DNA from: Escherichia coli
GTDB taxonomy: Bacteria; Pseudomonadota; Gammaproteobacteria; Enterobacterales; Enterobacteriaceae
NCBI RefSeq assembly: GCF_002854065.1
Contig: NZ_CP024147.1
Length of the DNA: 64,000 bases
Reading direction: 5' to 3' (one strand)
Shown here piece after piece: positions 1-53,326 of the stretch (position 1 is the first letter of the stretch; each line of letters opens with the position of its first letter). The position numbers and the translations under genes are program-made. The notes beneath the pieces were generated by a model. That model searched no databases. It was given only the letters and a program-made list of their open reading frames with translations, and was not told the DNA's origin.

Positions 1-629
1 AAAAAGAGCCGCCTGCACAGGCTGCTACACAATGAAAAAAGAATCATTCCACAAGCAAGGCACTTATGAGCAAGGTTAGTTGCCCTGGTGCTAACATAAC
101 GGTTAAGGCGGTAAGAACAAGCCACTAGCGGCTAAACGTTTTCCTTCCGAGTTGACAGTTTCCTGCTTGAGAGCTGCTCGTTTGTTAGCCAGAACAGGTT
201 AACGGATAAAATCAGTATATCCATAATAAATAAATAGTTGTTTAGCATTTATTTAAATAATGCCTTCCGAATAATACGCACTAAAATAATAAACAAGCTA
301 GGACTATCCAGTACTGCTAATTGATAGGCGCTCATGAAAACTGGAGAGATAATTGCTTCTGATTAGCCATCAATGCAATTACATCCTGGTCTGGGGATTC
401 CCGGGGGTTAAGTAGCGTGATTAACCATCATAAATATTGATTGAACTCATTTACCTAAAAAGCGCCATTTTGATAGGCTCGACTTAACTCGTTGACCATT
501 TACAGGATTGTAACGTTGGAAATCTTTTTTTAACCCACTGAAAAGTATCTCTTAAATATTTTTCATACATAAAAATTCATGGTCCGTTCAGTACGGATCC
601 GATTTTGTATGGGTTAAAAAAGGTACGTT

Positions 630-1238
630 ATGAAAGTTACATGGACCGTCACGCCTGTGGGGTATCAGCGCATCGCGAAACGATGCCCTTCATGCAACAT
701 TAAACGGGACTTCACGCCGTCAGGTGCATTTCGGGTTAATTCACAAAAGAAGGTGCTGGACGTGTGGAGTATCTATAAATGCACACACTGTGATTACACC
801 TGGAATATCTCCCTGTTTTCGCGTCTGCACGTCAGCAAAATTGACCGCCAGCTTTATCATCGACTAATGACAAACGATGCCGCCACGGTGCAGCACTTTG
901 CATGTGATATCGCGATGCTGAAGCGGAACAATGCAGAGCTATCGGGTCGGCCTGATTTTCACGTTCAGGAGCGCTGGCCGGTAAGCATCACCGCCCACCA
1001 GCGGGTTCGCGTTAGTGTCAGGATCTCCCGTTCATTTCAGGTAAGTCTGCTGTCGATTTTGAAGCAGCAGCTCATGCTGAGCGCTGGTGAGATTCAGAGA
1101 ATGGTGGAAGCAGGGCATATAAGTGGCGTTACACTGAAGTTGCTTAAATCGAGAAAGCTGAAGGCAGCGGAATATCACTTTCAGCTGACTGCGGAAATGT
1201 TATATGCCCGGCGCAGGATCGTTCTGACGCATCGTTAA
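630..1238 (+). CDS. Hypothetical protein with N-terminal CxxC...CxxC zinc-ribbon-like motif
   Basis: 202-aa ORF; CPSC and CTHC pairs near the N-terminus; no recognisable catalytic motif; lies in island cargo next to alpA-like gene. Confidence 0.45.
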   Translation: MKVTWTVTPVGYQRIAKRCPSCNIKRDFTPSGAFRVNSQKKVLDVWSIYKCTHCDYTWNISLFSRLHVSKIDRQLYHRLMTNDAATVQHFACDIAMLKRNNAELSGRPDFHVQERWPVSITAHQRVRVSVRISRSFQVSLLSILKQQLMLSAGEIQRMVEAGHISGVTLKLLKSRKLKAAEYHFQLTAEMLYARRRIVLTHR

Positions 1239-1454
1239 AATATTAAGCTCCCCTGAGGTAATAAACGCCCGTGTGGCAGCGGTTCAACATAATGCCAGAT
1301 AGGCCAGGGATAGGGGAGCTTCAGTTTTTCGGCTTCTGAATTGAGAACTTTAGTGAATGGGGTGATAGAGGATATCGCTTGAATTGTGCCGAGTCTAATG
1401 GTGCTTTAAGGATTGGGATATCGGGAAAGGTGTAGCTTAATTGAATGGGTTGTA

Positions 1455-1667
1455 TCAATGACCGCGTGAATCGGCAATGCGTTGCTGTAACCATAATTCG
1501 ACTTCACTTTTCTTCCAGCGGGAGCACCGGCCCAGCTTAATTGGCTTCGGGAACAGTCCGTCTTTTATCAACTTATAGAACCATTTATCCGTCAGCCCCG
1601 TTAGCTTTGTGATGAAGCGCATATCCACCAGTTGGTCATCAAGCAAAGAAATTTGTTCTGTCATGAT
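1455..1667 (-). CDS. alpA: AlpA-family prophage transcriptional regulator (excisionase-like)
   Basis: About 70 aa from internal Met (MTEQISLLDDQLVDMRFITKLTGLTDKWFYKLIKDG...SRWKKSEVELWL), typical AlpA-type helix-turn-helix pattern; start chosen by length match to family. Confidence 0.65.
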   Translation of the reverse strand: MMTEQISLLDDQLVDMRFITKLTGLTDKWFYKLIKDGLFPKPIKLGRCSRWKKSEVELWLQQRIADSRGH

Positions 1668-1771
1668 GCTGTCTTCCATTGTGGGATTATCCTGAGCTGG
1701 TGGTTGATTGCTCGTTACTACCAGCCCTTCCACATCAATGGATTGATACGTAAAAAAGTGCAGAACGTGAG

Positions 1772-2350
1772 TTATAGTGAGCGAGGACGCCCCAGTCCGC
1801 TGGGCGGCGGTACCTCACTGGCTCCGTAGTGATAGTGACCGTGCTTTTGCTCTTCTTTGGCAAGGTAGCTGATGATGTAGCGCAGGTTATCGATGGCTTC
1901 GGTATCATCGTAGTTCACCGGCTTATCAATACTGACGTCATAAGTAGGTTTGTATTCGCAGCGGTTGTAATAGCCTTCTCGTTGCGTTATTTCCCGCCAT
2001 ATTGTTCCGACTCTCTCAGCTATTGGGTAGGTAGCCTGGTTAAGGTGCCTGTCGAGATAGAACACGATATGAGCATGGCAGCCGTGGTCTACAGAGCTCT
2101 CCAGTACCCAGAAATACCCTGCCAGATTTGTGTGCTGCAGGGTGCGTTCAACCAGCATGCGTACCTCTCGCTCTGTTTCGTTCCATGAATGACGTTTAAA
2201 GCGCTCTGTACCTTTCTGATAGAACAGGTCGAGTCGGAGTGCCTGTATTTGGGAATATCGGTTCAGTAGCTGATTCAGGTGGTCATTGAGTAGAGACAGT
2301 AGAAACCAGTTCATCGTGTATCTGGGGTTAAATGGGTAAGGTGTATGCAT
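1772..2350 (-). CDS. Inovirus Gp2-like / YfjJ-YagK family prophage protein
   Basis: ORF extends to 2539, but Met at 2350 has an AAGGA box about 8 nt upstream; sequence resembles YfjJ/YagK family found next to alpA in CP4-type elements. Confidence 0.55.
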   Translation of the reverse strand: MHTPYPFNPRYTMNWFLLSLLNDHLNQLLNRYSQIQALRLDLFYQKGTERFKRHSWNETEREVRMLVERTLQHTNLAGYFWVLESSVDHGCHAHIVFYLDRHLNQATYPIAERVGTIWREITQREGYYNRCEYKPTYDVSIDKPVNYDDTEAIDNLRYIISYLAKEEQKHGHYHYGASEVPPPSGLGRPRSL

Positions 2351-2755
2351 TGATTTATCCTTTGTCAGGTGGAGTACAAAGGATTGGGATGGGATGTAAT
2401 TTTTAAGAGAAGCAGAGATACAGGGAACTGCGTATCCAGGGGAATACAGGCAGGGTTGCTTGTTGGGGAAGGGGCTATGAACAGAGTGGTATAGAAACAG
2501 GGAGTCCCCCTTAATTATACTAAAAACCCAAATGTTCATATCTGCTGTTGAACGATGCTAATGAGGTGAGCACAGGAGGATTGTAGGGTGAAAACAACAG
2601 GAATAATGCAGTAAAATGTCAGGCTTTTATCACAATTAAATCAGTAGGATATCAGTAAAAAATCAGCCATTCCTCAGCCTGTGACCCACCTCCCTCTACC
2701 TAAAAGATGCTCATGCTAATCTGTGTTCAGGAGCCAGAATTAGAGGGAGGAGACG

Positions 2756-3673
2756 ATGTTGCATTACGATATGATCCGCTATGAAATAATGTACCTAAAA
2801 ACGCTGGACAGGCATTTCAATACAGATCACTCGTTACTGTGCAGTACTTATGATAGGCCCGATGATTTTCGACGCTTGATCTCTCAGATACTTGAACGGC
2901 ATTTTCTTGGCGATCAGGACAGAATCAAAATTGCGCGGAAAACACTTAAAGAATGGGCTGACCTGCAACTGATTGATAAAGAATATTTTGATTGTTTCAA
3001 AGGCACACCAAGAGCATCGTGGTTTGCTCACCATTATATTTTTGAATACCCAGTATTACCTGCAGGGTTGAAACTTGGTGGGTTGGGGAATGACGTCGGT
3101 TGTTCAGGTGGTTTTAATTCTCTTTTAATGAACGATAATATCTTCACAAATCTTGATTTCTCTAATTTGAATATCGACCTGGACGATATAGATTGGGACC
3201 TGATAACAAATCCACAGGCCACTGCTTCGAAAAAAACGAAACGCGTTTTCTCCCGATTTTATCTGAACGCGGGAGCAAGTACCGATCTGTACAACCCCAC
3301 TCCGGTAACTGAGCGTGAACTCATCAATGGTGTGATGAGGTACATTGATGAAGCACCATGCTCACTTGGAGATAAGATCACTTATTTCAAAAAACTGCAT
3401 GAGCGCTGGCTTGAGCAATATGATTTTTTTCTAACAGATTTTGACTGGATGTCACGTGATGATGAAACTCAGTTAGTATATCTCTGGGACTATCTCAAAG
3501 GAAAGGGACGAATAGCGAGCTATCTTCGCCCTTATAATACGTCTATGCGTTATGACATGATTATTGCGGCTATGGATGTGTGGAACGCCCAACCTGAAGA
3601 GAAGCTGGAGTTTATTGAGAAGATGAAACATGCCTGGCAGGCAGCGAAATCTTACCGGAAATCTGCTAAATAG
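2756..3673 (+). CDS. Hypothetical protein (305 aa), island cargo, no recognised domain
   Basis: Long uninterrupted ORF with an acidic, Asp-rich central segment (NLNIDLDDIDWDL); convergent with the 158-aa gene and the Gabija operon. Confidence 0.5.
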   Translation: MLHYDMIRYEIMYLKTLDRHFNTDHSLLCSTYDRPDDFRRLISQILERHFLGDQDRIKIARKTLKEWADLQLIDKEYFDCFKGTPRASWFAHHYIFEYPVLPAGLKLGGLGNDVGCSGGFNSLLMNDNIFTNLDFSNLNIDLDDIDWDLITNPQATASKKTKRVFSRFYLNAGASTDLYNPTPVTERELINGVMRYIDEAPCSLGDKITYFKKLHERWLEQYDFFLTDFDWMSRDDETQLVYLWDYLKGKGRIASYLRPYNTSMRYDMIIAAMDVWNAQPEEKLEFIEKMKHAWQAAKSYRKSAK

Positions 3674-4035
3674 CGTTGTGATCGCAGTGATGTCTTGGTC
3701 TGATTTCTCAATGTAGTCATGAATCTGAGTCGACCCAGGGTCCTCTAACTATCTTTTCCTTGTCCCGTTAGGTACAAGCACATACTGTTAAAGATTAATA
3801 TGGCGGGGTATGGACGTCGGAGCTATGCCTACCTTTTAGATCGTTTGCTTCTGACTCGAAGCTTACAAGCTAGCTGATCTGAAGGTCCACTGTGAGCGAG
3901 GAGCGGACACCACGACTCACCAATAACTTGCTGCCCGCTTACGACCCAAAACCACCTATTGTATGTTAATTAATCTAGCAAACAAATGTTTAGCTTTTTA
4001 TCCGGCGAATGAAGCAAGAGAAATTGAACCCATTG

Positions 4036-4512
4036 CTAAGTATTACTGGGATTATTAAAAGGGATAATACTGGCCAATCCGTCATCTACATCAAGACCAT
4101 AGGCAACTGCTATTTCTGCCACAGAGGTACCACACTTTTTTCGCAGTTTAAAAAGCGCTCGCTCAAGCATAGATACTTGCACAGGATGATCAAATCGGAT
4201 GAACTGAGGGGAGCCAACACTGTCACCGAATTCTTGGCATGCCTTTCTCATTTTCCTTAATTGATTTGCTAAATATGAATCGCTCGGTAAACCTTGTAGG
4301 ATTTTAGTCAATTCAGATCTAATGCTGATAACACTCTGAATGCAATGACTAGTATCCTCCATATCGACAGGATTGAAAAGAACTCGCTTGTCCTCAAGAA
4401 AAATGACGATCTTCTTCGCTTCGTCAGCTTCTATTATTGGAGCATTCCACTGAATCCCGAATATAGGGCAGCTAAGGCCTGTAATATTTTTATAGATTCG
4501 TTCAAATTTCAA
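4036..4512 (-). CDS. Hypothetical protein (158 aa), apparent TTG start with strong Shine-Dalgarno
   Basis: AAGGAG box about 6 nt upstream of TTG at 4512..4510; same strand as and downstream of gajA/gajB; no recognisable motif. Confidence 0.5.
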   Translation of the reverse strand: MKFERIYKNITGLSCPIFGIQWNAPIIEADEAKKIVIFLEDKRVLFNPVDMEDTSHCIQSVISIRSELTKILQGLPSDSYLANQLRKMRKACQEFGDSVGSPQFIRFDHPVQVSMLERALFKLRKKCGTSVAEIAVAYGLDVDDGLASIIPFNNPSNT

Positions 4513-4689
4513 AACTCACTCCTTTGATGGACACATAACGCCTATACAGTCATGATGAGAAACGGACTCGGTTCGAGTAATCTGTTAGATAGCATCACTC
4601 GTAACTACTGTAAAAATAGTTGCTATCATGCTTATTGTCACTATAAATATTACTTAATGTCAGTCAGTTAAGAACGATTATTATCCCCC

Positions 4690-4725
4690 ACAATATAAAA
4701 TGTGTGTGGGGGCTATTTTTTCCAA
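4690..4725 (+). terminator. Putative rho-independent terminator (plus-strand orientation)
   Basis: Stem CCCCCACA/TGTGGGGG with about 10-nt loop followed by CTATTTTTT; lies between the 70-aa and 158-aa minus-strand ORFs. Confidence 0.45.
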
Positions 4726-4738
4726 GAGGTAGGCTTCA

Positions 4739-4951
4739 TCAAAGATAAACTACATGAGAAGAACGCCTTAACTTGCTCAAATGGATTGTGTTACAACAGT
4801 CTTGGTAACGTTTGCTATTGGCACATAGCGGGTCTTCAACCCAGTTAGCTCGCCCATTCTGTGCAAGTAGTGGACAATGAATGAAAAGATATTGGGTCGG
4901 ATTAACCTTGCGAAGGCCATCTAAGTCTGTGACGAACATTTCTTCAAGCAT
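4739..4951 (-). CDS. Small Cys-containing hypothetical protein (70 aa)
   Basis: ATG preceded by GAGGG about 7 nt upstream; four Cys residues; directly downstream of gajB; could be non-coding. Confidence 0.3.
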   Translation of the reverse strand: MLEEMFVTDLDGLRKVNPTQYLFIHCPLLAQNGRANWVEDPLCANSKRYQDCCNTIHLSKLRRSSHVVYL

Positions 4952-5085
4952 CTGAGGCCCTCAGCTCGCACCTAGAATTTTAATTTTGATGCATTTTGCC
5001 TTAGCTTGAGCATTGGAATGTGGCCTGATAACCGGTGTTTTCTTTTACTGGCCGTCCACAGACTCGATGACGCATTTATTCCCGA

Positions 5086-6903
5086 CTACCTTAAACCTGC
5101 CCCTCTCATTCGCTCCTCCAGTTCATCCAGAAATGGGGAACGCCCTAGACGCATAGGGCCGTAGCGACCATCAACAAAACCGGAATACAGCATATGCACC
5201 TCGTCCCGTGCGCGGGTCAGCCCCACATAGAAAAGACGTCGGCTTTCACGCAGCTTCTCTGGCGTCTCATTACGCCACGGCAAATTCCCCAGATCTAAGC
5301 CGACCATGATAACCACGTCATATTCGCAACCTTTGGCTGAGTGAAGTGTCAGCAAATTGAGGTGCTCAGGTGAACCGTCACGACCACCTAGGCTCGTGAT
5401 ATCCAACATCGCTAACGCACCGCCTTCGGCAAGTGCTGCAGTCATGCGATCTAGTTGCTCAGCCTGATCAGAAAGCGTTGGTTCAGTTGCCAGCAGGGAA
5501 TCAACGAGACCGTTGCGCAACGACGCGACAAAATCGGATGCAGAATGTTGGTCGGCACGAAGTGCCCAAAGTAGCCTGGTTAACTCCTGCCCCTTACTCC
5601 GGGCGCATGCATCATCCAGCCTTGCCCGATGAAATGCCAGATAACGGTCTATAAGTCCGCGCAGTTGAGGGCGCCCGATACGCCAACCGCCAGCACACCA
5701 TGCTGCGCAATCCTCCACCCAGCTCGTCAAGGCAACTTTGCGATAAGGTGCTGCGGTATCCACACGAATGTAATCAAAACCGCTAGCTGTCACCGCATCG
5801 GCCACAACATCGCCGGCACGGTAGTCCTTGTACAGAATGGCGATATCACCCAGTGTTCGGCCCGGCTTAGCAGCCAACGCAGCAGGAATAATCTGCTCGA
5901 CAGCATAGACAGCCTGATCCCCCAAGCCATCCGGACACAGCTGGAACGCAATGGTTGTCTGGCGGTTTGGGTCGTTTGCGCGATAACCACGAACCTCACC
6001 CAACACCATCTCCGATGCATTCACGATGTCCGCTCCTGATCTATAGTTCAACTGGAGCCGGACTGTTTCAACGTCTCTCCTGCCTGCCAGTTCTAGTAGT
6101 AACGCACCATCGGCACCAGTGAAACCGTAAATAGATTGGTCTGCATCACCCACTGCAAATAAGCGTACGCCTCCCTCGAAAGCCAGACGTTTGACCATAC
6201 GATGGAGTGCCACGCCCAAATCTTGATATTCATCTACCGCAAGGATCGGAAATTTCGCCTGTACTAGGGGCAGAACCCAATCATGCTCAATTATCAGACG
6301 CTGACCAAATATCACCATATCGTCGTAGTCTATCAGCCCTTGCTGCCGCAATGCAGCTTCGTAGGCCTCGGCCCATGCAGCGAGTTCCTCCTCTGTACGC
6401 CAGGCAACGCTGTTGCGATTCAACACCGAACGGCGATGCCGTCCGAGATCAATAGCCTTATAGGGATGGTTTGCGCCAAAGAGACGGTCACCAGATTGTC
6501 GAAGTAACCGTTCGCTCTCGCGCTGAGACGCTACTGACAGCGGAAATGGGATTGGCAGATCGGCCAGTCGCCCATAGGGCATCAACAGATGGCGCAAGCA
6601 GAACCCATGAACGGTTCCAATAAAGAGATTCGGTGCCTCTCTAAGCCCCAGCGCTTCGAGACGACGGGTTAGCTCGCGTGCGCATTCTTGGCTATATGTG
6701 ATACATGCCGCACCACGTGGAGCTTGAACATCCTCAGCTAGGATTCGTGCCAGCTTCAGCACAAGCGTCTTTGTCTTACCACTCCCCGGGCCCGCGAGCA
6801 CCACGCAGTGTCCCTGGGAGTGATACGCGGATAACTGGCCCGGATTCCCGGCCAGCTCGGCAGCCTGAGCTAAGTAGGCTGCACTGACACTACGTGACGG
6901 CAT
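5086..6903 (-). CDS. gajB: Gabija GajB-like UvrD/PcrA-family helicase
   Basis: Walker A VLAGPGSGKTKT, DEYQD box (LAVDEYQDLG) and further UvrD-like motifs; proposed start MPSRSV overlaps gajA stop by about 14 bp; longest ORF extends to 7005, so start is uncertain. Confidence 0.75.
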   Translation of the reverse strand: MPSRSVSAAYLAQAAELAGNPGQLSAYHSQGHCVVLAGPGSGKTKTLVLKLARILAEDVQAPRGAACITYSQECARELTRRLEALGLREAPNLFIGTVHGFCLRHLLMPYGRLADLPIPFPLSVASQRESERLLRQSGDRLFGANHPYKAIDLGRHRRSVLNRNSVAWRTEEELAAWAEAYEAALRQQGLIDYDDMVIFGQRLIIEHDWVLPLVQAKFPILAVDEYQDLGVALHRMVKRLAFEGGVRLFAVGDADQSIYGFTGADGALLLELAGRRDVETVRLQLNYRSGADIVNASEMVLGEVRGYRANDPNRQTTIAFQLCPDGLGDQAVYAVEQIIPAALAAKPGRTLGDIAILYKDYRAGDVVADAVTASGFDYIRVDTAAPYRKVALTSWVEDCAAWCAGGWRIGRPQLRGLIDRYLAFHRARLDDACARSKGQELTRLLWALRADQHSASDFVASLRNGLVDSLLATEPTLSDQAEQLDRMTAALAEGGALAMLDITSLGGRDGSPEHLNLLTLHSAKGCEYDVVIMVGLDLGNLPWRNETPEKLRESRRLFYVGLTRARDEVHMLYSGFVDGRYGPMRLGRSPFLDELEERMRGAGLR

Positions 6904-8674
6904 CGCAGATATACTCCAGTGCTTCACGAATGTAATCCGGGCATACATCCTCCGACACCGAGGGTGCCAGCGCTTGGGCGAACCGCCCTTTGCCAATTCG
7001 CTCAATCAGTTTCAACAACCGGACATTATCAAGCTGGTCCGTGTCATCCACCCACGCCTGTATCCTGTTCAGAGTAGCTCGTCTAGGAGACAATTCCTGC
7101 TCGATAACCAACTTCATGGCTTCGCCCAGTCCACCGGTAAACAGCTCTGGCTCCAGAGTGGTCTCATTGACGAAGCATCCAAAATCTCCGGCACGTGCAA
7201 TCACCTCCTCGGTAGTCATATCATCATGATCAACATCGCTCTCAAGCACGTCTAAGATATTGATAAATCTCTTACGAACCAGCGGCTCTCCATCCTCCTC
7301 AGGATCGCGGTCTGTCAGAATCACATGTGGAATATTGAGTCCCCGCGGCCCTAGGAGCTTCACATACGGAGTGAAATTTGTTCCACCGATCGAGCACACC
7401 GTGATCCCAAGCATATCTAGGGGAATATTAAGAGCATCAGCGAATGCTGGGACAAGAAAGCGTTCAGCATCCCCTTCCACCAAGATCACCCCACGTGAAA
7501 AGAATATTTCGCCGCGAGTGACATCGATATAGCGCTGCAGATCATCTTCGTCCCGCGGCGTAAACGGTGCGTTTGCCGTTGAAACCGCAATCGTCTTCCC
7601 TCCCTCCGGATCATGGCGCAGCAAAACGATGGATCTGATTGGTGTGACGCTGGCGATATGCGGGGAATGGGTGGTCAGGATCGTTGTCAACGGTGTTCCT
7701 TCATCACCATTGTCTCCGTCAGTCCCTAGGAAATAACGGTAAACCAGGCGCTGTACGTGCGGATGTAGGTGCGCTTCCGGCTCCTCGACTACGAAAAACG
7801 TATGGTCTCGTTCTCCGTCATTAACAAGACGATCAAGTTCGAGGCTTTTTAGGGCAAGAAAAATCAGATTAGCTGTCCCCAGACTGGCATCGCCAATGCC
7901 ACGAATGCCACTATCAAGCAGCAAACGCAGGCTACGTAGCAGCGCATCAACGCGAGTCGGTGCAAGTCCGAGCGATACCGGAACGGCATGTTGCTCACCT
8001 GCGATAGCTATCAACCTTTCGCTAATTCGTTCGGCTGTCGCTGCCACCTCATCATGATCAGCCAGTTCCCGTTGAGCCTCATCAACTTGGGTTTGAATCT
8101 CCTCACGAGTCTCGTCGTCCAGAGATGCGGACAGTTCTTCAATAAGCGGTCTTAAGGGTGAATTACGCCAGCTTGAAAGGTCCTTCTCGGCATCACGCAA
8201 CGCGCCTTGAACATCAATGGGCAACATACGGCGAAAGGCACCACCAATATGCATGTCAGGATCAGCTCCACCGAAGATCACATACTCATAATCTTTTAAC
8301 GATTCAGGAGCTCGATTTAACGCGGTTTTGGGCTGAAAGCGGTAGGTAAGACGGGCCACCATCGGAGGCCCCGGATTTAGGACACAGTCATTCAGATGAG
8401 CCATCAATCGGGGATCGTCAGTGAACTCAGTAAGATCCACTGAAATTTCGATGGTCTCCCCCAGTTTGTCTTCGCCCAATCCATCCCAAAAATGTTCAAA
8501 ACCCAGTTGACGGTCACGCTCAGACAACCCTGGGTCAAGAATCAGCTGCAGGCCGCGAATAAAATTGCTCTTGCCAACCTTGTTTTCACCAACAATAACA
8601 ATACTCTCACCCGTTTCAACATCAACATCGGAGAAGTTGGCGAAATTAATTAACCGGATTCGGGAAATCCGCAT
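6890..8674 (-). CDS. gajA: Gabija GajA-like OLD-family ATPase/TOPRIM nuclease
   Basis: 594 aa; N-terminal ABC ATPase P-loop (VGENKVGKSN); C-terminal TOPRIM-like acidic motifs (ILVEGDAE, ILTDRDPEE); immediately upstream of and overlapping the UvrD-like helicase gene. Confidence 0.8.
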   Translation of the reverse strand: MRISRIRLINFANFSDVDVETGESIVIVGENKVGKSNFIRGLQLILDPGLSERDRQLGFEHFWDGLGEDKLGETIEISVDLTEFTDDPRLMAHLNDCVLNPGPPMVARLTYRFQPKTALNRAPESLKDYEYVIFGGADPDMHIGGAFRRMLPIDVQGALRDAEKDLSSWRNSPLRPLIEELSASLDDETREEIQTQVDEAQRELADHDEVAATAERISERLIAIAGEQHAVPVSLGLAPTRVDALLRSLRLLLDSGIRGIGDASLGTANLIFLALKSLELDRLVNDGERDHTFFVVEEPEAHLHPHVQRLVYRYFLGTDGDNGDEGTPLTTILTTHSPHIASVTPIRSIVLLRHDPEGGKTIAVSTANAPFTPRDEDDLQRYIDVTRGEIFFSRGVILVEGDAERFLVPAFADALNIPLDMLGITVCSIGGTNFTPYVKLLGPRGLNIPHVILTDRDPEEDGEPLVRKRFINILDVLESDVDHDDMTTEEVIARAGDFGCFVNETTLEPELFTGGLGEAMKLVIEQELSPRRATLNRIQAWVDDTDQLDNVRLLKLIERIGKGRFAQALAPSVSEDVCPDYIREALEYICDAVT

Positions 8675-9229: not shown

Positions 9230-10105
9230 ATGAATAAACCTGACGGCCTTCAGGCCTTTGAACAACCGCTTGCGTCGCTTCCGTGCACACTTCGCCAGCT
9301 TATTCTTGAACGTATCCAGAACCTGACCCATTACGAGCCGGTGATTGGAATCATGGGCAAAAGTGGTACAGGTAAATCCTCTCTCTGCAACGAACTTTTC
9401 CGGGGCGAGGTGTCCCCGGTGAGTGACGTGAATGCCTGTACTCGCGACGTGCTGCGTTTCCGGTTACGCAGTGGGCGTCACAGCCTGGTGATTGTTGATT
9501 TACCGGGCGTGGGCGAAAACGGGCAGCGGGATCAAGAATACCGTGCCCTGTACCGTCGAATCCTGCCGGAGCTGGACCTGGTGCTGTGGGTCATTAAGGC
9601 CGATGATCGGGCACTAACCGTGGACGAGCAGTTCTGGCACGGTGTGATGCAAACTTACAGGCAAAAGGTACTGTTCGTGATTAACCAGGCCGACAAAATC
9701 GAACCCTGCCATGAATGGGATACCCTCACCAGCAAACCTTCACCGCACCAACTGGGAAATCTTAAAGCGAAGCAGGCTGCGATTATGGTGATGTTTAAAC
9801 CGCATCATCCGGTCTGTGTGGTGTCAGCCCGCACTGGATGGGGCATTGAGGAGATGGTGGCAGCCATGATGCGCTGTCTGCCTGACCGCGCCACCAGCCC
9901 GGTGGTGACACAACTGCACAGGAAACTCTGCACAGAGCCGGTAAAGTCGCAGGCTCGTGACAGTTTCGGTGAAGCTGTGGGCCGGGTTTTCGATACCGCA
10001 GAATCATCTTCGTTCCTGTCTACATCGCTGAAAACGGTGATTCGTAGCGTGCGTGATGCGGTGGTGTCGGTCGCACGGGCCGTCTGGGACTGGATATTCT
10101 TCTGA
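9230..10105 (+). CDS. Prophage-associated GTPase, YkfA/YfjP/YeeP family
   Basis: 291 aa; P-loop GKSGTGKSS and DLPG motif; this family is typical of CP4-type islands. Confidence 0.75.
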   Translation: MNKPDGLQAFEQPLASLPCTLRQLILERIQNLTHYEPVIGIMGKSGTGKSSLCNELFRGEVSPVSDVNACTRDVLRFRLRSGRHSLVIVDLPGVGENGQRDQEYRALYRRILPELDLVLWVIKADDRALTVDEQFWHGVMQTYRQKVLFVINQADKIEPCHEWDTLTSKPSPHQLGNLKAKQAAIMVMFKPHHPVCVVSARTGWGIEEMVAAMMRCLPDRATSPVVTQLHRKLCTEPVKSQARDSFGEAVGRVFDTAESSSFLSTSLKTVIRSVRDAVVSVARAVWDWIFF

Positions 10106-10348
10106 TATCGCAATTTTCTCTGCGAATGATGAACTTGTTGTTAATGATGTGTTGATTGTGGACACGTCCTTTCCATTGCGTTTTATCATCAACAAAATCA
10201 GGAGAAGCATCATTATCTGTCAGACGAGCGCTCACAAGGCCGGGCTGCTCATAAAAAATAGTTCCGATGTTGTCCATACCCTGTCCACCCCTTCCTTTAA
10301 AGTAATCATTATTAATTCAGAGAGTTAACTTCTCAGGAGAAATCTTTC

Positions 10349-11065
10349 ATGACGCTTCAGGAGCGGCGACATGACCGGCTTGCCGTCAGGTTGTCGTTGA
10401 TTATCAGCCGCCTGGTGTCCGGTGAAACTCTGTTTATTCGCAAACTGGCAACTGAATTCGGGGTGTCAGAGCGCACGTTACGTCGTGACTTTCGGGAACG
10501 TCTGATGTATCTCGACCTGGATTATTACCAGGGGCAGTGCAGTCTGCGCTCGGATATTCACAGTACGCGGCAGGAAATAGATATTCTGACCTTTGCTCAC
10601 CGTACGGGGCTGGCCGGGGTTTTCCCGGGCTTTGACCGGCGACTGGTCAGCAGCCTGCTGGACTGTGATGATCGACCCTGTCTGGTATGGCATCAGGACA
10701 GACCTCATCCCCCGGCAGGAAAGCTCTCCTTCTACAGGCTGGTCAGAGCTATTTCTGAATGTCAGCGCATCACCATTCTGACTGAAGGGGAGCGTCATGA
10801 GGCCGTTGCACCTTACCGGCTAATCGCTCTGGACGGTTACTGGTATCTGGTCGCTGAACATAACAGGCAATTACGTGTCTTCCGGCTGGATGAGATTCAT
10901 CTGGTAAGGCCATCGCGGGAAACATTTATTCGCAGTGAGCTTCTCTATCAGCTGTCGGAGGATAAACATTTTATCTCTGCCTTACCTCATTTCCGTTTTA
11001 TTCAGCAGTCGCTGAATTCATTTTCTCCCTCAGAAAGTCGGGGGCAATCCGGACAAACTGATTAG
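10349..11065 (+). CDS. WYL-domain transcriptional regulator, YfjR-like
   Basis: 238 aa; N-terminal HTH ([16 protein letters not shown]), C-terminal YWYL-containing segment ([11 protein letters not shown]). Confidence 0.7.
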
Positions 11066-11100
11066 AGATGGTCTCCATAATTAAATGTAAGGTTAATCTA

Positions 11101-11553
11101 ATGAAAGAATTGAAATTGTTGTCTTTACTGCCAGTCATATTGTTCCCCTTACTTATCGCAGGTAATGCTCACGCAGCACGTCCTTATAGCGGATTCCTGC
11201 CTGCAGCAGTGAATAATAAGAGTGGGAATATATTCTGGTGTGATGCCCACCGCCAGGTCAGAAAACTGTGTACAGCGACGGAAGTGGATTCAATGGGATG
11301 GTTTATTGTTGTTCGCTCGAAACCTTCCAGAGATTGTCCGGGGGGCCTTTGGGGGTGGATCACTCCCAGTAAAGACGATGTAGCAACAGGGTATACCATT
11401 ACGCCAGGTAAAGAATTCAATCTCACCATGAAGGATATGTGCAGTCCCGATATGAAAGTAACGTTCCGCCCGAATAAAAAGGACCCTCGTTATGACGATC
11501 TCGTCGGGATTTATGCAGGGAAAGAAGCTTTTCGCTACAAACAAATAAAATAA
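11101..11553 (+). CDS. Secreted or periplasmic hypothetical protein
   Basis: Signal-peptide-like N-terminus MKELKLLSLLPVILFPLLIAGNAHA; start taken at internal Met. Confidence 0.5.
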   Translation: MKELKLLSLLPVILFPLLIAGNAHAARPYSGFLPAAVNNKSGNIFWCDAHRQVRKLCTATEVDSMGWFIVVRSKPSRDCPGGLWGWITPSKDDVATGYTITPGKEFNLTMKDMCSPDMKVTFRPNKKDPRYDDLVGIYAGKEAFRYKQIK

Positions 11554-11624
11554 TCCAACTGTTTTTTCGTTACTTTATTGTTTTAAACAACAAAAGCCTT
11601 ATTACATGATTTGAGGACAACATT

Positions 11625-12098
11625 ATGCGACTGCCTTACGTAATATTTACATTAGCTATGCTGGCTTCTGTATCAACAGCACAGGCTATTCCCAATATGT
11701 GGACGAGTGGTTTTGGGATGGGCGTGACCGAATATATTATTACCAGCCCGGAGAAGGTGGTGTTTAATCTGAACTGTACTGGCAATCCGGATGCGCAGAA
11801 TATTCTGCAACACGGTGTTGATCTCACCCTGCCTGATGGAACATCAGTAAGCTCTCATGACGACGGAACGGAAATCACGGTCGTCATGGATAACAGTCAG
11901 TATCCGTTACCGTCATTCCTCGGCTGGCGAAACGGTGACAATGCCTGGGTGTCATTTATTGACGCCCTGAGCCAGTCTGCGAATTTTGATGTTTACGTCA
12001 ACGATAAAAAAGTCGGCACCTTCAGTCCGGGGCTGAAGAATACGCAGAAAGAGCTGTCTGACCTCAGTGAGTGCCGGACCACACACTACAGCGATTAG
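11625..12098 (+). CDS. Secreted or periplasmic hypothetical protein
   Basis: 157 aa; signal peptide MRLPYVIFTLAMLASVSTAQA; followed by a clear intrinsic terminator. Confidence 0.55.
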   Translation: MRLPYVIFTLAMLASVSTAQAIPNMWTSGFGMGVTEYIITSPEKVVFNLNCTGNPDAQNILQHGVDLTLPDGTSVSSHDDGTEITVVMDNSQYPLPSFLGWRNGDNAWVSFIDALSQSANFDVYVNDKKVGTFSPGLKNTQKELSDLSECRTTHYSD

Positions 12099-12153
12099 TT
12101 ACTTACATTTCAGACCTCTCCAGCCCGCTACGCACCAACACCAGATAGCAACA

Positions 12154-12190
12154 GGCCATGCTCCTTCGGGAACATGGCCTTTTTTGTTTT
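12154..12190 (+). terminator. Rho-independent terminator
   Basis: GGCCATGCTCCTTCGGGAACATGGCC hairpin followed by a T-run. Confidence 0.6.
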
Positions 12191-12218
12191 TATTTGATTA
12201 TCAGATAAGGAGTTAGCT

Positions 12219-13040
12219 ATGCGACTAGCCAGCCGCTTTGGCCGTATAAACCAGATACGCCGTGACCGGCCTCTGACCCACGAAGAGCTGATGAGTCATG
12301 TACCCAGCGTGTTCGGGAGTGACAAGCATGAATCTCGTTCAGACAGGTACACCTACATCCCGACCATCACCATCCTCGAAAGCCTGCAGCGGGAAGGCTT
12401 TGAGCCGTTCTTTGCCTGCCAGACAAAAGTTCGCGACCAGAGCAAGCGGGAGCACACCAAGCACATGCTTCGACTGCGTCGCTCCGGGCAACTGACCGGG
12501 CATCAGGTGCCGGAAATCATTCTACTTAACAGCCATGACGGCTCATCAAGCTACCAGATGCTGCCGGGCCTGTTTCGTGGCGTCTGTACCAACGGCCTGG
12601 TCTGCGGTCAGTCATTCGGAGAAGTGCGGGTACCGCATAAAGGGAATGTTGTCGAGAAGGTGATTGAAGGGGCTTACGAAGTGCTCGGTGTGTTTGACCG
12701 GGTGGAGGAGAAGCGCGATGCAATGCAGTCACTGGCACTGCCAGAACCAGCCCGTAACGCCCTGGCGAATGCCGCGCTGAAGTATCGCTTTGGTGAAGAC
12801 CACCAGCCGGTCACGGTATCGCAGTTGCTGACCCCACGTCGCCGGGAGGACTACAGCGATGACCTGTGGACCGTATACCAGCGCGTGCAGGAGAACCTGA
12901 TGAAAGGAGGTCTGTCAGGGCGAACCGCTCAGGGGAAAAGCAGCCGCACCCGTGCTGTTATCGGCATTGACGGCGATGTGAAACTCAATCGCGCCCTGTG
13001 GATTATGGCAGAAAACATGCTCGAATTTTTCGGGCGTTAA
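12219..13040 (+). CDS. DUF932-family protein (YfjQ/YafZ-like)
   Basis: 273 aa, the same length as the K-12 prophage paralogs; sequence resembles that family. Confidence 0.65.
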   Translation: MRLASRFGRINQIRRDRPLTHEELMSHVPSVFGSDKHESRSDRYTYIPTITILESLQREGFEPFFACQTKVRDQSKREHTKHMLRLRRSGQLTGHQVPEIILLNSHDGSSSYQMLPGLFRGVCTNGLVCGQSFGEVRVPHKGNVVEKVIEGAYEVLGVFDRVEEKRDAMQSLALPEPARNALANAALKYRFGEDHQPVTVSQLLTPRRREDYSDDLWTVYQRVQENLMKGGLSGRTAQGKSSRTRAVIGIDGDVKLNRALWIMAENMLEFFGR

Positions 13041-13070
13041 ACAACCGTTCCGGCATAAGGAGATAGTTTA

Positions 13071-13511
13071 ATGGATACCCACAACCCTGAGTTTGCTGAG
13101 CAGGCAGCAATTACTGCCTCGGTAGTCCCTGACGAGTTACGTATCGGCTTCTGGCCAAAGCGCTTTGGATCTATCCCACAATGGATAACCCTTGAGCCCC
13201 AAATATTTGGCTGGATGGATCGTCTGTGCGCTGATTACAGCGGCGGCGCCTGGAGCTTTTACACACTCAGCAACGGCGGCGCATTTATGGCTCCGGAGCC
13301 CGACGGTGAGAAGTGGACGTTGTTCAACCCGATGAATGGAAACGATGCGGAGATGAGCGGAGAGGCTGCCGGTATAGCGGCCTGCCTGATGGCATACAGC
13401 CACCACGCTTGTCGCACCGAATGTGACGCGATGACTGAGCACTATTATCGCTTACGTGACTACGCGCTAAACCATCCGGAATGCAGCGCCATTATGTATC
13501 TAATCGACTGA
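13071..13511 (+). CDS. Antirestriction protein, ArdB/KlcA family (YfjX/YafX-like)
   Basis: 146 aa; resembles the CP4-type antirestriction paralogs; position between DUF932 and RadC-like genes matches that module. Confidence 0.7.
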   Translation: MDTHNPEFAEQAAITASVVPDELRIGFWPKRFGSIPQWITLEPQIFGWMDRLCADYSGGAWSFYTLSNGGAFMAPEPDGEKWTLFNPMNGNDAEMSGEAAGIAACLMAYSHHACRTECDAMTEHYYRLRDYALNHPECSAIMYLID

Positions 13512-13523
13512 GGAATACCTGAC

Positions 13524-14066
13524 ATGAATATCGCATTATCCCCGGTATCATCGCAGCCTGAACTCTTTCCGCTGGCGGTTATGGCCCAGCATAGTTGCCT
13601 GCTCCCCGCGACCTCCGGATTGACACCTTATGCCCAACGGACCATTCGACGTGCTATCAACCTGCTGGATAAATATCTGCGCCAGCCCGGCATGTCCTTT
13701 ACCTCAAGCACGGCTGCCCGTGACTGGCTTCGGTTACAGCTGGCAGGACAAGAACGGGAAGTGTTTATGGTGCTCTATCTCGATAACCAGCACCGTTTAC
13801 TGGAGAGTGAAACGCTATTTGCCGGTTCGGTTAACCATGTCCAGGTCCATCCCCGTGAGGTGGTGAAGTCAGCGCTTCGCTTCAATGCTGCTGCTGTTGT
13901 GCTGGCGCATAACCATCCATCCGGTGATCCGGAGCCCAGCCAATGTGACCGCAACATTACGGGCAGGCTTAAAGAAGCGCTGGCACTGGTTGATGTGAAC
14001 ACTCTCGATCATCTGGTTATCGGTTCAGATGGAATTGTGTCGTTTGCAGAGCGAGGCTGGATATGA
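13524..14066 (+). CDS. RadC-like JAB-domain protein (YeeS/YfjY/YkfG family)
   Basis: HNHPSGDPEPS JAMM-like motif; start may be the internal Met at about 13581. Confidence 0.75.
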   Translation: MNIALSPVSSQPELFPLAVMAQHSCLLPATSGLTPYAQRTIRRAINLLDKYLRQPGMSFTSSTAARDWLRLQLAGQEREVFMVLYLDNQHRLLESETLFAGSVNHVQVHPREVVKSALRFNAAAVVLAHNHPSGDPEPSQCDRNITGRLKEALALVDVNTLDHLVIGSDGIVSFAERGWI

Positions 14067-14076
14067 GGGCACTTCA

Positions 14077-14418
14077 ATGAAATCTACTGACTCAGAGAAC
14101 GATTCATTTCTCAAGTGGGGTCTGAATCGTAATGTGACACCTTGCTTTGGCGCTCGTCTGGTACAGGAGGGAAACCGGCTGCACTATCTGGCTGACCGGG
14201 CCAGTATCACCGGTAAGTTCAGCGAAGCAGAATGTCTTAAGCTGGATATGGCATTCCCGCATTTTATTAGCCAGATGGAATCGATGCTGACTACTGGTGA
14301 AATGAATCCTCGCCATGCCCACTGTGTCACCCTGTACCACAATGGTTTCACCTGCGAAGCCGATACCCTTGGCAGTTGCGGCTACGTATACATCGCCGTT
14401 TACTCCACCCATCGTTAA
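14077..14418 (+). CDS. CbeA/YeeU/YfjZ-family antitoxin (type IV TA)
   Basis: 113 aa from internal Met; [23 protein letters not shown] is close to the YeeU sequence. Confidence 0.8.
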
Positions 14419-14438
14419 CTACTTTCACAAGAGCAAAT

Positions 14439-14780
14439 ATGAAAACTCTACCTGCAACAAATCCGCAGGCGGCGAAGCTATGTCTGTCGCCCGTGGCTGT
14501 CTGGCAAATGCTGCTTGCACGCCTGCTGGAACAACATTATGGCCTGACACTCAACGACACGCCATTCAGTGATGAAACGGTAATTCAGCAACATATCGAT
14601 GCCGGTATATCTTTGGCCGATGCCGTTAATTTTCTGGTGGAAAAGTACGGGCTGGTTCGTATTGATCGCAGGGGATTCGACTGGCAAGAACAGTCCCCAT
14701 ATCTGCGGGCAGTCGATATTCTGCGGGCGCGACAGGCAACTGGTTTATTGAAAAGAAATCGTATTAGCGCGGCACGGTGA
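14439..14780 (+). CDS. CbtA/YeeV/YkfI-family toxin (type IV TA)
   Basis: 113 aa from internal Met; directly follows the cognate antitoxin; sequence resembles the YeeV/YpjF family. Confidence 0.8.
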
Positions 14781-14783
14781 ATA

Positions 14784-15017
14784 TTGGGAATAGCCTTCCT
14801 GATTCACACTGCAGCTTTCCTTACTTATTTAATTTACTCATTCCAAAAAGCACCTGCCGATGCTGGTTGGTGCTTTTACTTATATGGACGAAATATCATG
14901 CAAATAGAAGCTGTAATTTTAACTGGGCACATTATCGCAAGTACAATCCGGGAATGCTGGGCCGTCGTTGTTGATGGTTTTGACGCATGCGGCGAACAAG
15001 CTTATGATCCAGCTTAA
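14784..15017 (+). CDS. Small hypothetical protein following the toxin (YeeW-like position)
   Basis: 77-aa ORF starting 4 bp after the toxin stop; coding status uncertain. Confidence 0.3.
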   Translation: MGIAFLIHTAAFLTYLIYSFQKAPADAGWCFYLYGRNIMQIEAVILTGHIIASTIRECWAVVVDGFDACGEQAYDPA

Positions 15018-15043
15018 TTTCTTTTCCTCATGAAGGGACGGGT

Positions 15044-16051
15044 ATGGGCAACAGAATGTGGATGATTCGCGGTGACGGCGGCAAGCTCTATGACGATTTT
15101 CGCGATAAGCAAATTGTAGGCATCGGTTGGTCTCAGCTGGCTCCATTAGTCAAACCCGGCCTGTCCCGAGCCCAGTTACTCGCCTTATACCAGGAGGCAG
15201 ATCCCTTAACAAAGCTGGGAACAGCCCGTTCTGGTGCATCGCAGGTCTGGCGTTTTGTGAATGAGATCCAAAAGGGTGATTGGGTTATTACCTATTCGCC
15301 AGCCAACCGTACTTATTTGCTAGGCAAAGTCACATCCGACTTCCAATATCATCCTGAATGGGTGGAAGAGGGGATGGGGATCGCTCGGCAGGTTAAATGG
15401 AATACTCAAGAAATCGACCGCGATAGACTGTCTGTTGCTACCAAAAACACATTGGGTTCTACGCTGACGGTTTTTCAGCTTCCAGAATATGCGCTAGAAG
15501 AGCTTTTGCAGGATAAGAAACCCACTATAGATGTAATTACTCAGAATCCAGTTGCAATGGATGAAGATGAGGTCGTTTCTGATCCGCTTCGCGATATGGA
15601 AATGCTGGCGTTTGAGGGTATCAAAGATCGTATTAACTCTCTTGATTGGGACGAGATGCAAAATCTTGTTGCCGGAGTTTTACGCAGTATGGGCTATAAA
15701 ACGCAGGTTTCACCTGCGGGAGCCGATCGGGGTAAAGACATCATTGCTTCACCTGATGGGTTCGGTTTTGAAAATCCGCGTATTATCGTTGAGGTAAAGC
15801 ACCGCAGGGAACAGATGGGAAGCCAACAGATACGCAGCTTTATCGGCGGTCGCCATAAAGACGATCGCGGGCTTTATGTCAGTACAGGGGGTTTTACGAA
15901 AGATGCTCGATATGAAGCCGACCGTTCGACGATACCACTGACGCTCTGGACACTTGATGATCTCGTCCGTGCGCTTATTGAGAACTACGAACAAGTTGAT
16001 ATCGAGACTAAACTTTTGGTGCCTCTGAAGAAAACTTTCCTGCCTGCCTGA
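15044..16051 (+). CDS. Mrr-cat (PD-(D/E)xK) restriction-endonuclease-like protein with an uncharacterised N-terminal domain
   Basis: C-terminal half matches the Mrr catalytic core pattern (GADRGKDIIA...IIVEVKHRRE...QQIRSFIGG...GLYVSTGGFTKDA); N-terminal ~160 aa does not look like the K-12 Mrr N-terminal domain. Confidence 0.65.
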   Translation: MGNRMWMIRGDGGKLYDDFRDKQIVGIGWSQLAPLVKPGLSRAQLLALYQEADPLTKLGTARSGASQVWRFVNEIQKGDWVITYSPANRTYLLGKVTSDFQYHPEWVEEGMGIARQVKWNTQEIDRDRLSVATKNTLGSTLTVFQLPEYALEELLQDKKPTIDVITQNPVAMDEDEVVSDPLRDMEMLAFEGIKDRINSLDWDEMQNLVAGVLRSMGYKTQVSPAGADRGKDIIASPDGFGFENPRIIVEVKHRREQMGSQQIRSFIGGRHKDDRGLYVSTGGFTKDARYEADRSTIPLTLWTLDDLVRALIENYEQVDIETKLLVPLKKTFLPA

Positions 16052-16211
16052 ATCTTGCTTTGATAGCCATATCGGTGTTCTACTGGTATGGCTTTATACC
16101 CACTTGCAATGTCTATTTTTTATACGGACTTTAACTTGTGGGTACAAGTGTGGGTATAACTATTTATTCCTATTTATAAACTGCATTGATATCAGTCTGT
16201 TAGGTGTGAAA

Positions 16212-16248
16212 TTCGAGTCCGGCCTTCGCACCTTCGCACCTTCGCACC
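16212..16248 (+). repeat. Degenerate tRNA 3' end repeat (leuX-like), probable island attR
   Basis: TTCGAGTCCGGCCTTCGCACC resembles the T-arm/acceptor 3' end of tRNA-Leu (leuX); TTCGCACC is triplicated and ends in CCA; no full tRNA is present. Confidence 0.55.
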
Positions 16249-16450
16249 ATCGGAACATCAATAGACATCAACGGACGTTTTTTTATGACTGAAATCCGCG
16301 CCACACAAGGCTTTTCGCTATTTTTCGCTCAACCTAAGTCAACCTACATCAACTTACTGATGTGGATACAGCTACAGCTGCGGCTATACCCCGATTCGAT
16401 AATGTTTGTACCCACACAAAACCCTTGAAAGGCTACAAGGCTGAAATTGT

Positions 16451-16669
16451 CTAAACCATAGAGATGATTTTTATGATCCAGTCTTTCTCTTGTTGAGATA
16501 GTTCCAGTTTGCTCACTCGTGTTAAGAAGGTATTGATCACCTGAACATCCGAATTGGTGAGCCTATTTAATAGAGCGGGTGGTATACCTTTACTAACAAT
16601 CGCTTTGCGGTGACTTTCGTAGTTTTTATTACTCATTGTTGATCCTAAAAAATCATTGTATGGCGGCAT
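16451..16669 (-). CDS. Small hypothetical protein (72 aa)
   Basis: ORF only; no recognisable motif. Confidence 0.3.
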   Translation of the reverse strand: MPPYNDFLGSTMSNKNYESHRKAIVSKGIPPALLNRLTNSDVQVINTFLTRVSKLELSQQEKDWIIKIISMV

Positions 16670-17014
16670 TGATCGTTTCCAGCAACCTTTACTTACTCAC
16701 TTCGAACTGCATCCTCGTAGACTGTTCCACTACAATAATCGAAAAGGCGCGGATGTCCATTCAGGTATCCCGCTAATACGTATAGCAATAACAATGGCTT
16801 ATGCGGCGCGCGCTGTTCACCCTTGTGCCAGATTTTTATATTGGCAATTGCCTGCTGTAGCGATTTACTGGAAGCTATTGATATCCCTGGCAGTGAAATA
16901 ATTGCGATCATGCTCGCAAATTTTCTGCTGTTCAAGCCTGCAAGTGAAGATATATTACCTTGATCTCATTTGTTTTTTTGCTGCCTGTTCTGAGAACGTA
17001 TAAGGACATTCTCC

Positions 17015-17665
17015 ATGAATAAACTCCCTGATCATCTTCCGCGGCGGTATATCATCGAAGCTATCCATTTATGGGATGCGGGAGAAACTCATCAGTTCCA
17101 GCCTGCGCGGTTGTATGAGATTGAATATCATGGCCGACGTTACCCCTCGAAGGCGATTGCTGGCATCGCAGCGACATTGATGACGGGGACGCAATTTACC
17201 CCTGCGGATTTCACCGGCGGAATAAAATCTAAATGTGTCAAGCTACTCATAGAGCAGGGATTTCATATTCATCTGGATAAAGCCGCTGCGGCTCCCATAG
17301 CCGACGTTCTGTTCCCGGATGAGTTGCCGTCGCAGGAGACATACCTTGAAGGTGCGGCGATAAAGGTGACAGTAAACCGCTATGAACGCGATAAAAAGGC
17401 CCGAGATAAAGCGGTCGAACATCATGGATGCCAGTGCAACGTATGCGGTGTTGATCTGGTGAAGATCTATGGTGATATCGCTGAAGGCTTTATCCATGTG
17501 CATCACCTGGTGCCGCTGTCAGCCATTAAAGAGGATTACCAGCTGGATCCAGTTAATGATTTGCTGCCTGTGTACCCTAATTGCCATGCGATGTTGCACC
17601 GACGCAAACCACCGTTTACGCCGGAGCAGTTAAAAGCGCTGATGGATGCGAATAAATCAAATTAA
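17015..17665 (+). CDS. HNH endonuclease-domain protein (McrA-like, putative type IV restriction nuclease)
   Basis: C-terminal HNH signature HHLVPLS...DLLPVYPNCHAMLH with upstream CQCNVCG zinc-binding pair; N-terminal ~110 aa uncharacterised. Confidence 0.65.
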   Translation: MNKLPDHLPRRYIIEAIHLWDAGETHQFQPARLYEIEYHGRRYPSKAIAGIAATLMTGTQFTPADFTGGIKSKCVKLLIEQGFHIHLDKAAAAPIADVLFPDELPSQETYLEGAAIKVTVNRYERDKKARDKAVEHHGCQCNVCGVDLVKIYGDIAEGFIHVHHLVPLSAIKEDYQLDPVNDLLPVYPNCHAMLHRRKPPFTPEQLKALMDANKSN

Positions 17666-53063: not shown

Positions 53064-53073
53064 GCTCTCTCCA

Positions 53074-53277
53074 TTAACAACAGCGCATACCGCCTTTACC
53101 ATCGCCGCCGTAGCGCGCGTTCTGGCGTTCGCGGAAGAATTCTTCATAGCTCATGTACGGCTTGTCGGGATGGTTGGTCTTCATATGCTCGACGTAGTTG
53201 TCGTAGTCTGGAATGCCAATCAACATCTTTGCCGCCTGGCCGAGATATTTTTTTGCCTGTCCTAAGTTACCAAACAT
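53074..53277 (-). CDS. yjiX: YjiX (DUF466) small protein
   Basis: 67 aa, matches YjiX; cotranscribed with btsT. Confidence 0.85.
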
Positions 53278-53326
53278 AGTTCACTCTGATAAGAACAAAG
53301 CCCCGCCGAAGCGGGGCTAAACACGG

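Follow-up and report, generated by a model that had tools for sequence, protein, structure and literature searches.

The window analysed here, a stretch of 64,000 nucleotides (nt) from Escherichia coli contig NZ_CP024147.1 (assembly GCF_002854065.1), carries a block of five intact, contiguous open reading frames (ORFs), all on the plus strand, at positions 12219-14780. In order, these encode a DUF932 protein, an ArdB/KlcA-family antirestriction protein, a RadC-like protein with a JAB domain, and the antitoxin and toxin of a CbeA/CbtA-type pair (Table 1). All five Pfam matches lie well over the curated cut-offs, and the family assignments made in an original prediction, which was drawn from the letters of the window, hold with E-values of 1e-37 to 1e-62. 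The same five genes are annotated by RefSeq in a copy of the block that is 100% identical. The prediction had placed the block at 12219-15017; the start is exact, but the end overshoots the stop codon of cbtA at 14780 by 237 nt.

Table 1. Features of the five-gene block and its surroundings (positions are those of the window).
Feature	Position	Strand	Evidence or remark
DUF932 protein (YfjQ/YafZ family), 273 aa (amino acids)	12219-13040	+	PF06067, E 8.8e-50
ArdB/KlcA-family antirestriction protein, 146 aa	13071-13511	+	PF03230 (Antirestrict), E 2.5e-37
RadC-like JAB-domain protein (YfjY/LfgB, YkfG, YeeS family), 180 aa	13524-14066	+	PF04002, E 1e-44
YeeU/CbeA-family antitoxin, 113 aa	14077-14418	+	PF06154 (CbeA_antitoxin), E 2.6e-54
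CbtA-family toxin, 113 aa	14439-14780	+	PF06755 (CbtA_toxin), E 3.2e-62
Terminator-like GC-rich hairpin and T-run, putative operon 5' boundary	12153-12195	+	RNA fold -23.7 kcal/mol, z -4.9
Intrinsic-terminator-like hairpin and U-run 3' of cbtA, putative operon 3' boundary	14846-14881	+	-19.2 kcal/mol, z -4.4
Promoter-like site TTGACG-17-TATGAT before the Mrr-like gene	14980-15008	+	Promoter scan
Mrr-type restriction endonuclease, PADLOC candidate PDC-S02	15044-16051	+	PF04471 E 1.9e-24; PDC-S02 full length E 1.8e-81
YfjP/YkfA-like GTPase	9230-10105	+	54-56% identity to K-12; Pfam MMR_HSR1
YfjR-like WYL regulator	10349-11065	+	59% identity; Pfam WYL
Small secreted protein, weakly like YfjS/YafY	11101-11553	+	23% identity to K-12 counterpart
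YfjT/YkfB (IrmA-family) protein	11625-12098	+	52-53% identity; 90-3040 counterpart annotated as IrmA family
Gabija: gajB 5086-6903, gajA 6890-8674, overlapping genes	5086-8674	-	PADLOC GajA E 5.8e-234, GajB E 1.9e-258
AlpA-family regulator gene	1455-1664		Upstream of Gabija

Within the block the genes are separated by 30, 12, 10 and 20 nt, and Shine-Dalgarno sequences are kept. Because the gaps are short (10-30 nt) and a strong terminator-like hairpin lies at either side, the five genes read as one compact operon, a prediction made from the nucleotide sequence; for the hairpin 3' of cbtA, none of 200 shuffled sequences was equally stable. We read the tail at 14781-15017 as the probable terminator of this operon, followed by the promoter of the Mrr-like gene. 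Searches of the window by tblastn with DUF987, DUF905, DUF5983, DUF957, YeeW, YpjK, YfjW and YeeR proteins returned nothing significant, the best match to any of four DUF987 queries having an E-value of 0.087 over 27 residues, and the present copy is a minimal five-gene variant that lacks the small DUF905, DUF987, DUF5983 and DUF957 genes. No Rfam family was found in the window at the gathering threshold, nor at E <= 1 in 11900-15100, and no PADLOC model matches the DUF932, ArdB or RadC proteins. A 77-aa ORF at 14784-15017 was considered as a further gene and rejected: it has no match in Pfam, NCBIfam or PHROG and no similarity to YeeW, it is without RefSeq annotation, and it spans both the 3' hairpin and the promoter-like site listed in Table 1.

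The individual proteins are closely related to those of the cryptic elements of E. coli K-12 (identities from alignments), and similarity to the named CP4 families was found throughout, with tblastn E-values of 1e-44 to 1e-146 against K-12. The DUF932 protein covers the whole of its profile (residues 36-261 on positions 1-227 of 227), is 77% identical to YfjQ of CP4-57 and 78% identical to YafZ of CP4-6, and has invariant residues at Cys123, Asn125, His140 and Glu225; a search with its AF2 (AlphaFold2) model, which has a predicted local distance difference test score (pLDDT) of 93, found no solved structural relative. The ArdB protein scores 127 bits against PF03230, where the cut-off is 25, and matches the solved structures of ArdB from E. 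coli CFT073 (PDB 2wj9, E 1.1e-71) and of KlcA (2kmg, E 6.2e-23); it is 70% identical to YfjX/LfgA (CP4-57) and 68% to YafX (CP4-6). The RadC-like protein is over the cut-off of TIGR00608 and matches a RadC homolog of known structure (2qlc, E 5.8e-23). Its identities to YfjY/LfgB, YkfG and YeeS (CP4-57, CP4-6 and CP4-44) are 59%, 56% and 56%, and the JAB metal-binding motif is intact, with H129-N-H-P-S-G134 and D142 invariant against the K-12 paralogs. The antitoxin matches the structures of YfjZ (2ea9, E 3.6e-58) and YeeU (2h28, E 1.7e-43), and is 83% identical to YfjZ (CP4-57), 77% to YafW (CP4-6) and 63% to CbeA (CP4-44). The toxin gene lies directly 3' of the antitoxin gene, and its product is 82%, 78% and 62% identical to YpjF, YkfI and CbtA of the same three elements, respectively. 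Residue F65, on which CbtA, YpjF and YkfI depend to bind FtsZ (PMC5624674), is conserved in this toxin, which also shares with YpjF and YkfI a Cys at position 15. From the identities to YpjF and YfjZ we infer that the pair is a toxin-antitoxin system of type IV, in which the antitoxin would act without sequestering the toxin; together with the PF03230 match and its structural counterparts, the adjacent PF06755 and PF06154 genes bear out the antirestriction and type IV toxin-antitoxin labels that had been given to the block.

It had also been proposed that the five-gene block recurs as paralogous copies in CP4-6, CP4-44 and CP4-57. The relationships are real (56-83% identity), but the contiguous block is found in none of the three K-12 elements, and a comparison of synteny gives a divided picture: all five families are present in CP4-57 and CP4-6, whilst CP4-44 is without DUF932 and ArdB, DUF932 stands apart in CP4-57 and CP4-6, and all three have a DUF987 gene placed between those for RadC and the antitoxin. 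CP4-57 (yfjQ and lfgABCDE, i.e. yfjX-yfjY-ypjJ-yfjZ-ypjF) shares with the present island not only the five families, with identity highest for the toxin-antitoxin pair (82% and 83%), but also a GTPase, a WYL regulator and a YfjT-like protein. It differs in that yfjQ adjoins the GTPase gene, about 6.4 kb from yfjX, in that the DUF987 gene ypjJ lies between the RadC and antitoxin genes, and in its site of integration, which is ssrA rather than leuX. In CP4-6 (yafZ and yafX-ykfG-ykfH-yafW-ykfI), where the five families are 56-78% identical to those of the window, DUF932 likewise stands beside the GTPase gene, about 2 kb from the antirestriction gene; DUF905 (ykfF) and DUF987 (ykfH) genes are present and the element is integrated at thrW. 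CP4-44 (yeeS-yeeT-cbeA-cbtA) holds a RadC-like gene (56% identity) together with the toxin-antitoxin pair on which type IV was founded (63% and 62%); it differs in having DUF987 (yeeT) and yeeW, and its 17 kb hold neither a DUF932 nor an ArdB homolog.

The setting of the block in the island was compared with that at the same locus in two relatives, strains PAR and 90-3040. The island part of the window runs in the order DUF1062, AlpA-family regulator, YagK/YfjJ-domain protein, Gabija, GTPase, WYL regulator, two small secreted proteins, the five-gene block, Mrr-type nuclease and HNH protein, and the conserved island backbone is nine genes, namely four at 9230-12098 and the five of the block. 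The two small proteins encoded at 11101-12098 have N-termini that look like signal peptides by eye, and neither has a Pfam match. The block had been described as sandwiched between Gabija and the Mrr-like nuclease; both neighbours are real, but the four backbone genes part Gabija from the block. In the source strain as in both relatives, cbtA is followed directly by the Mrr-type nuclease gene. PAR keeps the backbone and the Mrr-like gene and has Dsr1, GIY-YIG and TOPRIM genes where Gabija sits here; 90-3040 also keeps the backbone and the Mrr-like gene, with other genes upstream. In the window (2756-8674), Gabija and DUF6650 fill the cargo slot that the YagK/YfjJ-domain and GTPase genes delimit; in CP4-57 it is filled by AbpAB and RnlAB. 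The same module is found at the same locus in PAR and 90-3040 with differing upstream cargo, and it belongs to the conserved backbone. The common backbone with differing cargo in PAR, 90-3040 and CP4-57 also supports the earlier suggestion that the block defines the island type and its defence setting: it serves as a landmark that marks 9-15 kb of the window as CP4-type backbone, parting this from swappable defence cargo.

The wider island can be followed in E. coli VTB96935v, which has an identical copy of the block in a composite island at the tRNA-Leu gene leuX. There, about 34 kb of cargo lies between the integrase and the module, and the order is integrase, type I restriction-modification, prokaryotic Argonaute with a nuclease, KpLE2-like genes and then the part seen in the window, beyond which come a nanS remnant, nanM, nanC and the fim operon. 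This places the module at the integrase-distal side, with the tRNA gene and the integrase lying outside the window.

Taken together, we consider it likely that the block is one operon that forms a conserved accessory module at the integrase-distal side of the CP4-type, tRNA-integrated islands of Enterobacteriaceae, here within a composite leuX island, and that it would serve counter-restriction and toxin-antitoxin-based retention. By homology, the ArdB protein would block type I restriction in vivo, acting indirectly and not by DNA mimicry; in vivo, relief of restriction by all four type I families has been shown for ArdB, YfjX and YafX (PMC2836571). The RadC-like JAB protein is predicted to be a metal-dependent hydrolase, and its relative LfgB (YfjY) has been reported to degrade the antitoxin MqsA (PMC10846083). 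The toxin would bind FtsZ and MreB, halting division and elongation, and would be neutralized by the YeeU-family antitoxin encoded upstream of it. YpjF and YkfI are toxic, give rise to lemon-shaped cells, bind FtsZ, and are neutralized by YfjZ and YafW (PMC5371832, PMC5624674). Counter-restriction by ArdB may thus help the island to become established in a new host, and addiction to the toxin-antitoxin pair may then retain it. The leading region of conjugative plasmids, in which the DUF932 gene is likewise found, holds anti-defence and toxin-antitoxin genes whose role this would resemble. Since type I genes share the leuX island with the module, a type I system and an ArdB protein predicted to act against such systems are encoded side by side on one island. 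The block also shows that an element with defence genes holds a counter-defence gene against type I restriction.

Several points weigh against this interpretation. The functional assignments of all five proteins rest on homology. ArdB was inactive in vitro against EcoKI (PMC2836571), and its mechanism is thus indirect; the activity of RadC domains is disputed between that of a protease and the alternative of nucleic-acid processing (PMC5512222). The cbtA ortholog in PAR has an internal stop and is a pseudogene next to an intact antitoxin gene, so addiction is not always maintained. Mrr-like and HNH cargo lies between the module and the end of the island, and no direct repeat of the leuX 3' end was found anywhere in the window with up to 3 mismatches, which leaves the right end of the island undefined. 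Lastly, scanning for promoters in the interval from the hairpin at 12153-12195 to the DUF932 gene gave no sigma-70-like site.

In its distribution, the block is an ordinary, annotated and near-ubiquitous island module that is already known, as the original prediction had said in calling it not novel. A sensitive DNA search found at least part of it in 5198 of the 5426 complete E. coli genomes (about 96%), at a median of 4 and a maximum of 17 places per genome; 16,844 of these places are chromosomal and 3,475 are on plasmids. Elsewhere, where the genes are contiguous, they usually run DUF932, antirestriction, RadC/JAB, DUF987, YeeU and CbtA. The variant of the window is 100% identical in four RefSeq records from three strains, and by megablast at least 80% of it is covered in 37 genomes. 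A preprint presents the module as a 'moron' operon situated at the integrase-distal end of integrated elements that carry defence genes, and suggests a satellite lifestyle (PMC12458937).

At least 5000 plasmid records match as well, of which 4345 are conjugative, nearly all through the DUF932 gene. On an IncFIA plasmid, DUF932 is found with ssb, DUF905, psiB and hok, adjoining a transglycosylase gene and traM, a region that, given the layout of F-like plasmids, we take to be the leading region. The full module with extra small genes is found on large Klebsiella IncFIB/IncHI1B plasmids (e.g. NZ_CP021699.1), in the same order of DUF932, antirestriction, RadC, YeeU and CbtA and with a WYL regulator upstream; these copies differ in adding DUF905, two small hypothetical genes, DUF987, DUF5983 and DUF957, and their DNA identity is about 70%. 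Leading regions of conjugative plasmids are enriched in antirestriction and toxin-antitoxin genes, and their anti-defence islands likewise pair KlcA/ArdB antirestriction with toxin-antitoxin systems and uncharacterized small genes (PMC11541004). Unlike such regions, the present element is chromosomal and tRNA-integrated, is without oriT (the origin of transfer), ssb, psiB and a relaxase gene, and no single-stranded-DNA promoter was identified in it.

The likeliest of the alternatives takes the module to be a 'moron' operon of phage origin within a phage satellite, an island mobilized by a helper phage, in whose cycle the module would manipulate the defences and physiology of the host. This was proposed in the preprint named above, and the families DUF932, antirestriction protein and RadC do exist in PHROGs; upstream there are genes for an AlpA-family regulator and for a YagK/YfjJ-domain protein. 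With a single DUF932 protein as query, close relatives of DUF932 were found on 93 predicted viral contigs in IMG/VR, of which 37 also carry the other module genes. Among these 37 enterobacterial loci, DUF932 lies directly upstream of ArdB, as in the window, in 16, the K-12 order of GTPase, DUF932 and WYL is seen in 15, a further 3 are without ArdB, and the last 3 have other or incomplete arrangements. However, the module often stands at the end of the IMG/VR contig, as if a neighbouring island had been swept into the prophage call, and 50,697 cultured phage records yielded just 3 weak partial matches, with no complete phage among them. The surrounding part of the window holds no capsid, terminase, primase or packaging gene, and the strongest link outside the islands is with conjugative plasmids. 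We regard a satellite origin as rather unlikely, and the affinities of the module point more towards conjugative elements than towards a phage satellite. The word 'prophage', under which the K-12 elements had been cited in the prediction, is a name of historical origin: cultured phage genomes almost wholly lack the module, and there is no phage structural gene in the surrounding 20 kb. In the environmental viral contigs of IMG/VR a separate DUF932 group was observed, with about 50% identity and without ArdB, RadC or toxin-antitoxin genes nearby.

It is also conceivable that the operon is a domesticated stress-response unit of the host, in which the RadC-like protein would act as a protease that degrades a host regulator (MqsA in K-12) and so derepresses RpoS, the toxin-antitoxin pair tuning oxidative-stress tolerance and biofilm formation. 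In K-12 the lfgABCDE (yfjXY ypjJ yfjZF) operon is reported to be induced by H2O2 and repressed by MqsA, and LfgB to degrade that protein (PMC10846083); deletions of the toxin and antitoxin genes are reported to give stress and biofilm phenotypes (PMC5371832). Against this, the RadC-like protein of the window is only 59% identical to LfgB, the reported phenotypes all come from one laboratory strain, and the multicopy, mobile, mosaic and plasmid-borne nature of the module fits a role in a selfish element better than a fixed role in the host; we consider this explanation unlikely.

One small new point concerns the hairpin with a T-run that lies directly upstream of the DUF932 Shine-Dalgarno sequence (12153-12195 here): its structure covaries and is conserved at this place before DUF932. 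Of 32 distinct regions upstream of enterobacterial-type DUF932 genes, 28 have such a hairpin, compared with 2.9% of background windows (Fisher p 4e-38), and in these 28 loci it ends 25-49 nt before the start codon. Compensatory changes are seen in 7 of its 8 consensus pairs, and the hairpin accompanies DUF932 irrespective of the gene upstream. In the distant environmental DUF932 group (about 50% identity) it was found in just 1 of 34. Since a promoter neither fits nor is seen between the hairpin and the Shine-Dalgarno sequence, expression must involve read-through. AlpA-family proteins act as antiterminators in Pseudomonas (PMC7969949, PMC9371919). A link between the AlpA-family gene at 1455-1664 and read-through of the hairpin is speculation. 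It might be imagined that the DUF932-led operon is a gated establishment cassette common to CP4-type islands and conjugative plasmids, with DUF932 as an uncharacterized anti-defence or establishment factor and the hairpin as a regulated antitermination switch, possibly aided by AlpA, such that ArdB and the toxin would be made only on entry or induction; we hold this more elaborate picture to be improbable. Current understanding of the module is unchanged by the present analysis, and residual novelty lies only in the role of DUF932 and in the conserved hairpin upstream of it.

The block is under purifying selection, the ratio of nonsynonymous to synonymous divergence (dN/dS), computed against PAR and 90-3040, being well below 1. 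It is 0.05-0.07 for DUF932 and ArdB and 0.23-0.50 for RadC, antitoxin and toxin, the latter values resting on only 7-12 substitutions each. That the block is a decaying remnant without current function, as might be thought from the composite nature of the island, the gene fragments nearby (a partial SBD-HNH gene and a partial nanS), the internal stop of cbtA in PAR and the loss of several accessory genes of the fuller module, is very improbable given these ratios, the five intact ORFs with their conserved JAB motif and toxin F65, and the retention of Shine-Dalgarno sequences and flanking terminators. Synonymous divergence (dS) from the same two relatives is uneven, at 0.29-0.39 for DUF932, ArdB and the Mrr-like gene and 0.03-0.09 for RadC, antitoxin and toxin, and because of this unevenness the comparison indicates probable recombination inside the module, with breakpoints near 13.5 kb and at 14.8-15.0 kb.

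Some further observations concern the defence genes around the module. In the stretch 15044-17665 of the window, the Mrr-type nuclease gene is followed by a second variable slot; in PAR this slot is occupied by a type I system together with DUF4942, McrBC and an SBD-HNH enzyme, and in the window only by a 150-nt SBD-HNH fragment and the HNH protein at 17015-17665. Outside the window and closer to the integrase, the leuX island (NZ_CP178662.1, 4025281-4039988) encodes a prokaryotic Argonaute accompanied by a PD-(D/E)XK nuclease, as well as a type I restriction-modification system that includes an AAA ATPase. Between yjiS and yjiA the window has a penicillin G acylase gene (about 52218-54758, plus strand), in an interval that in K-12 holds the mcrBC-hsdSMR-mrr restriction cluster; the type I genes of this strain are in the leuX island, outside the window.

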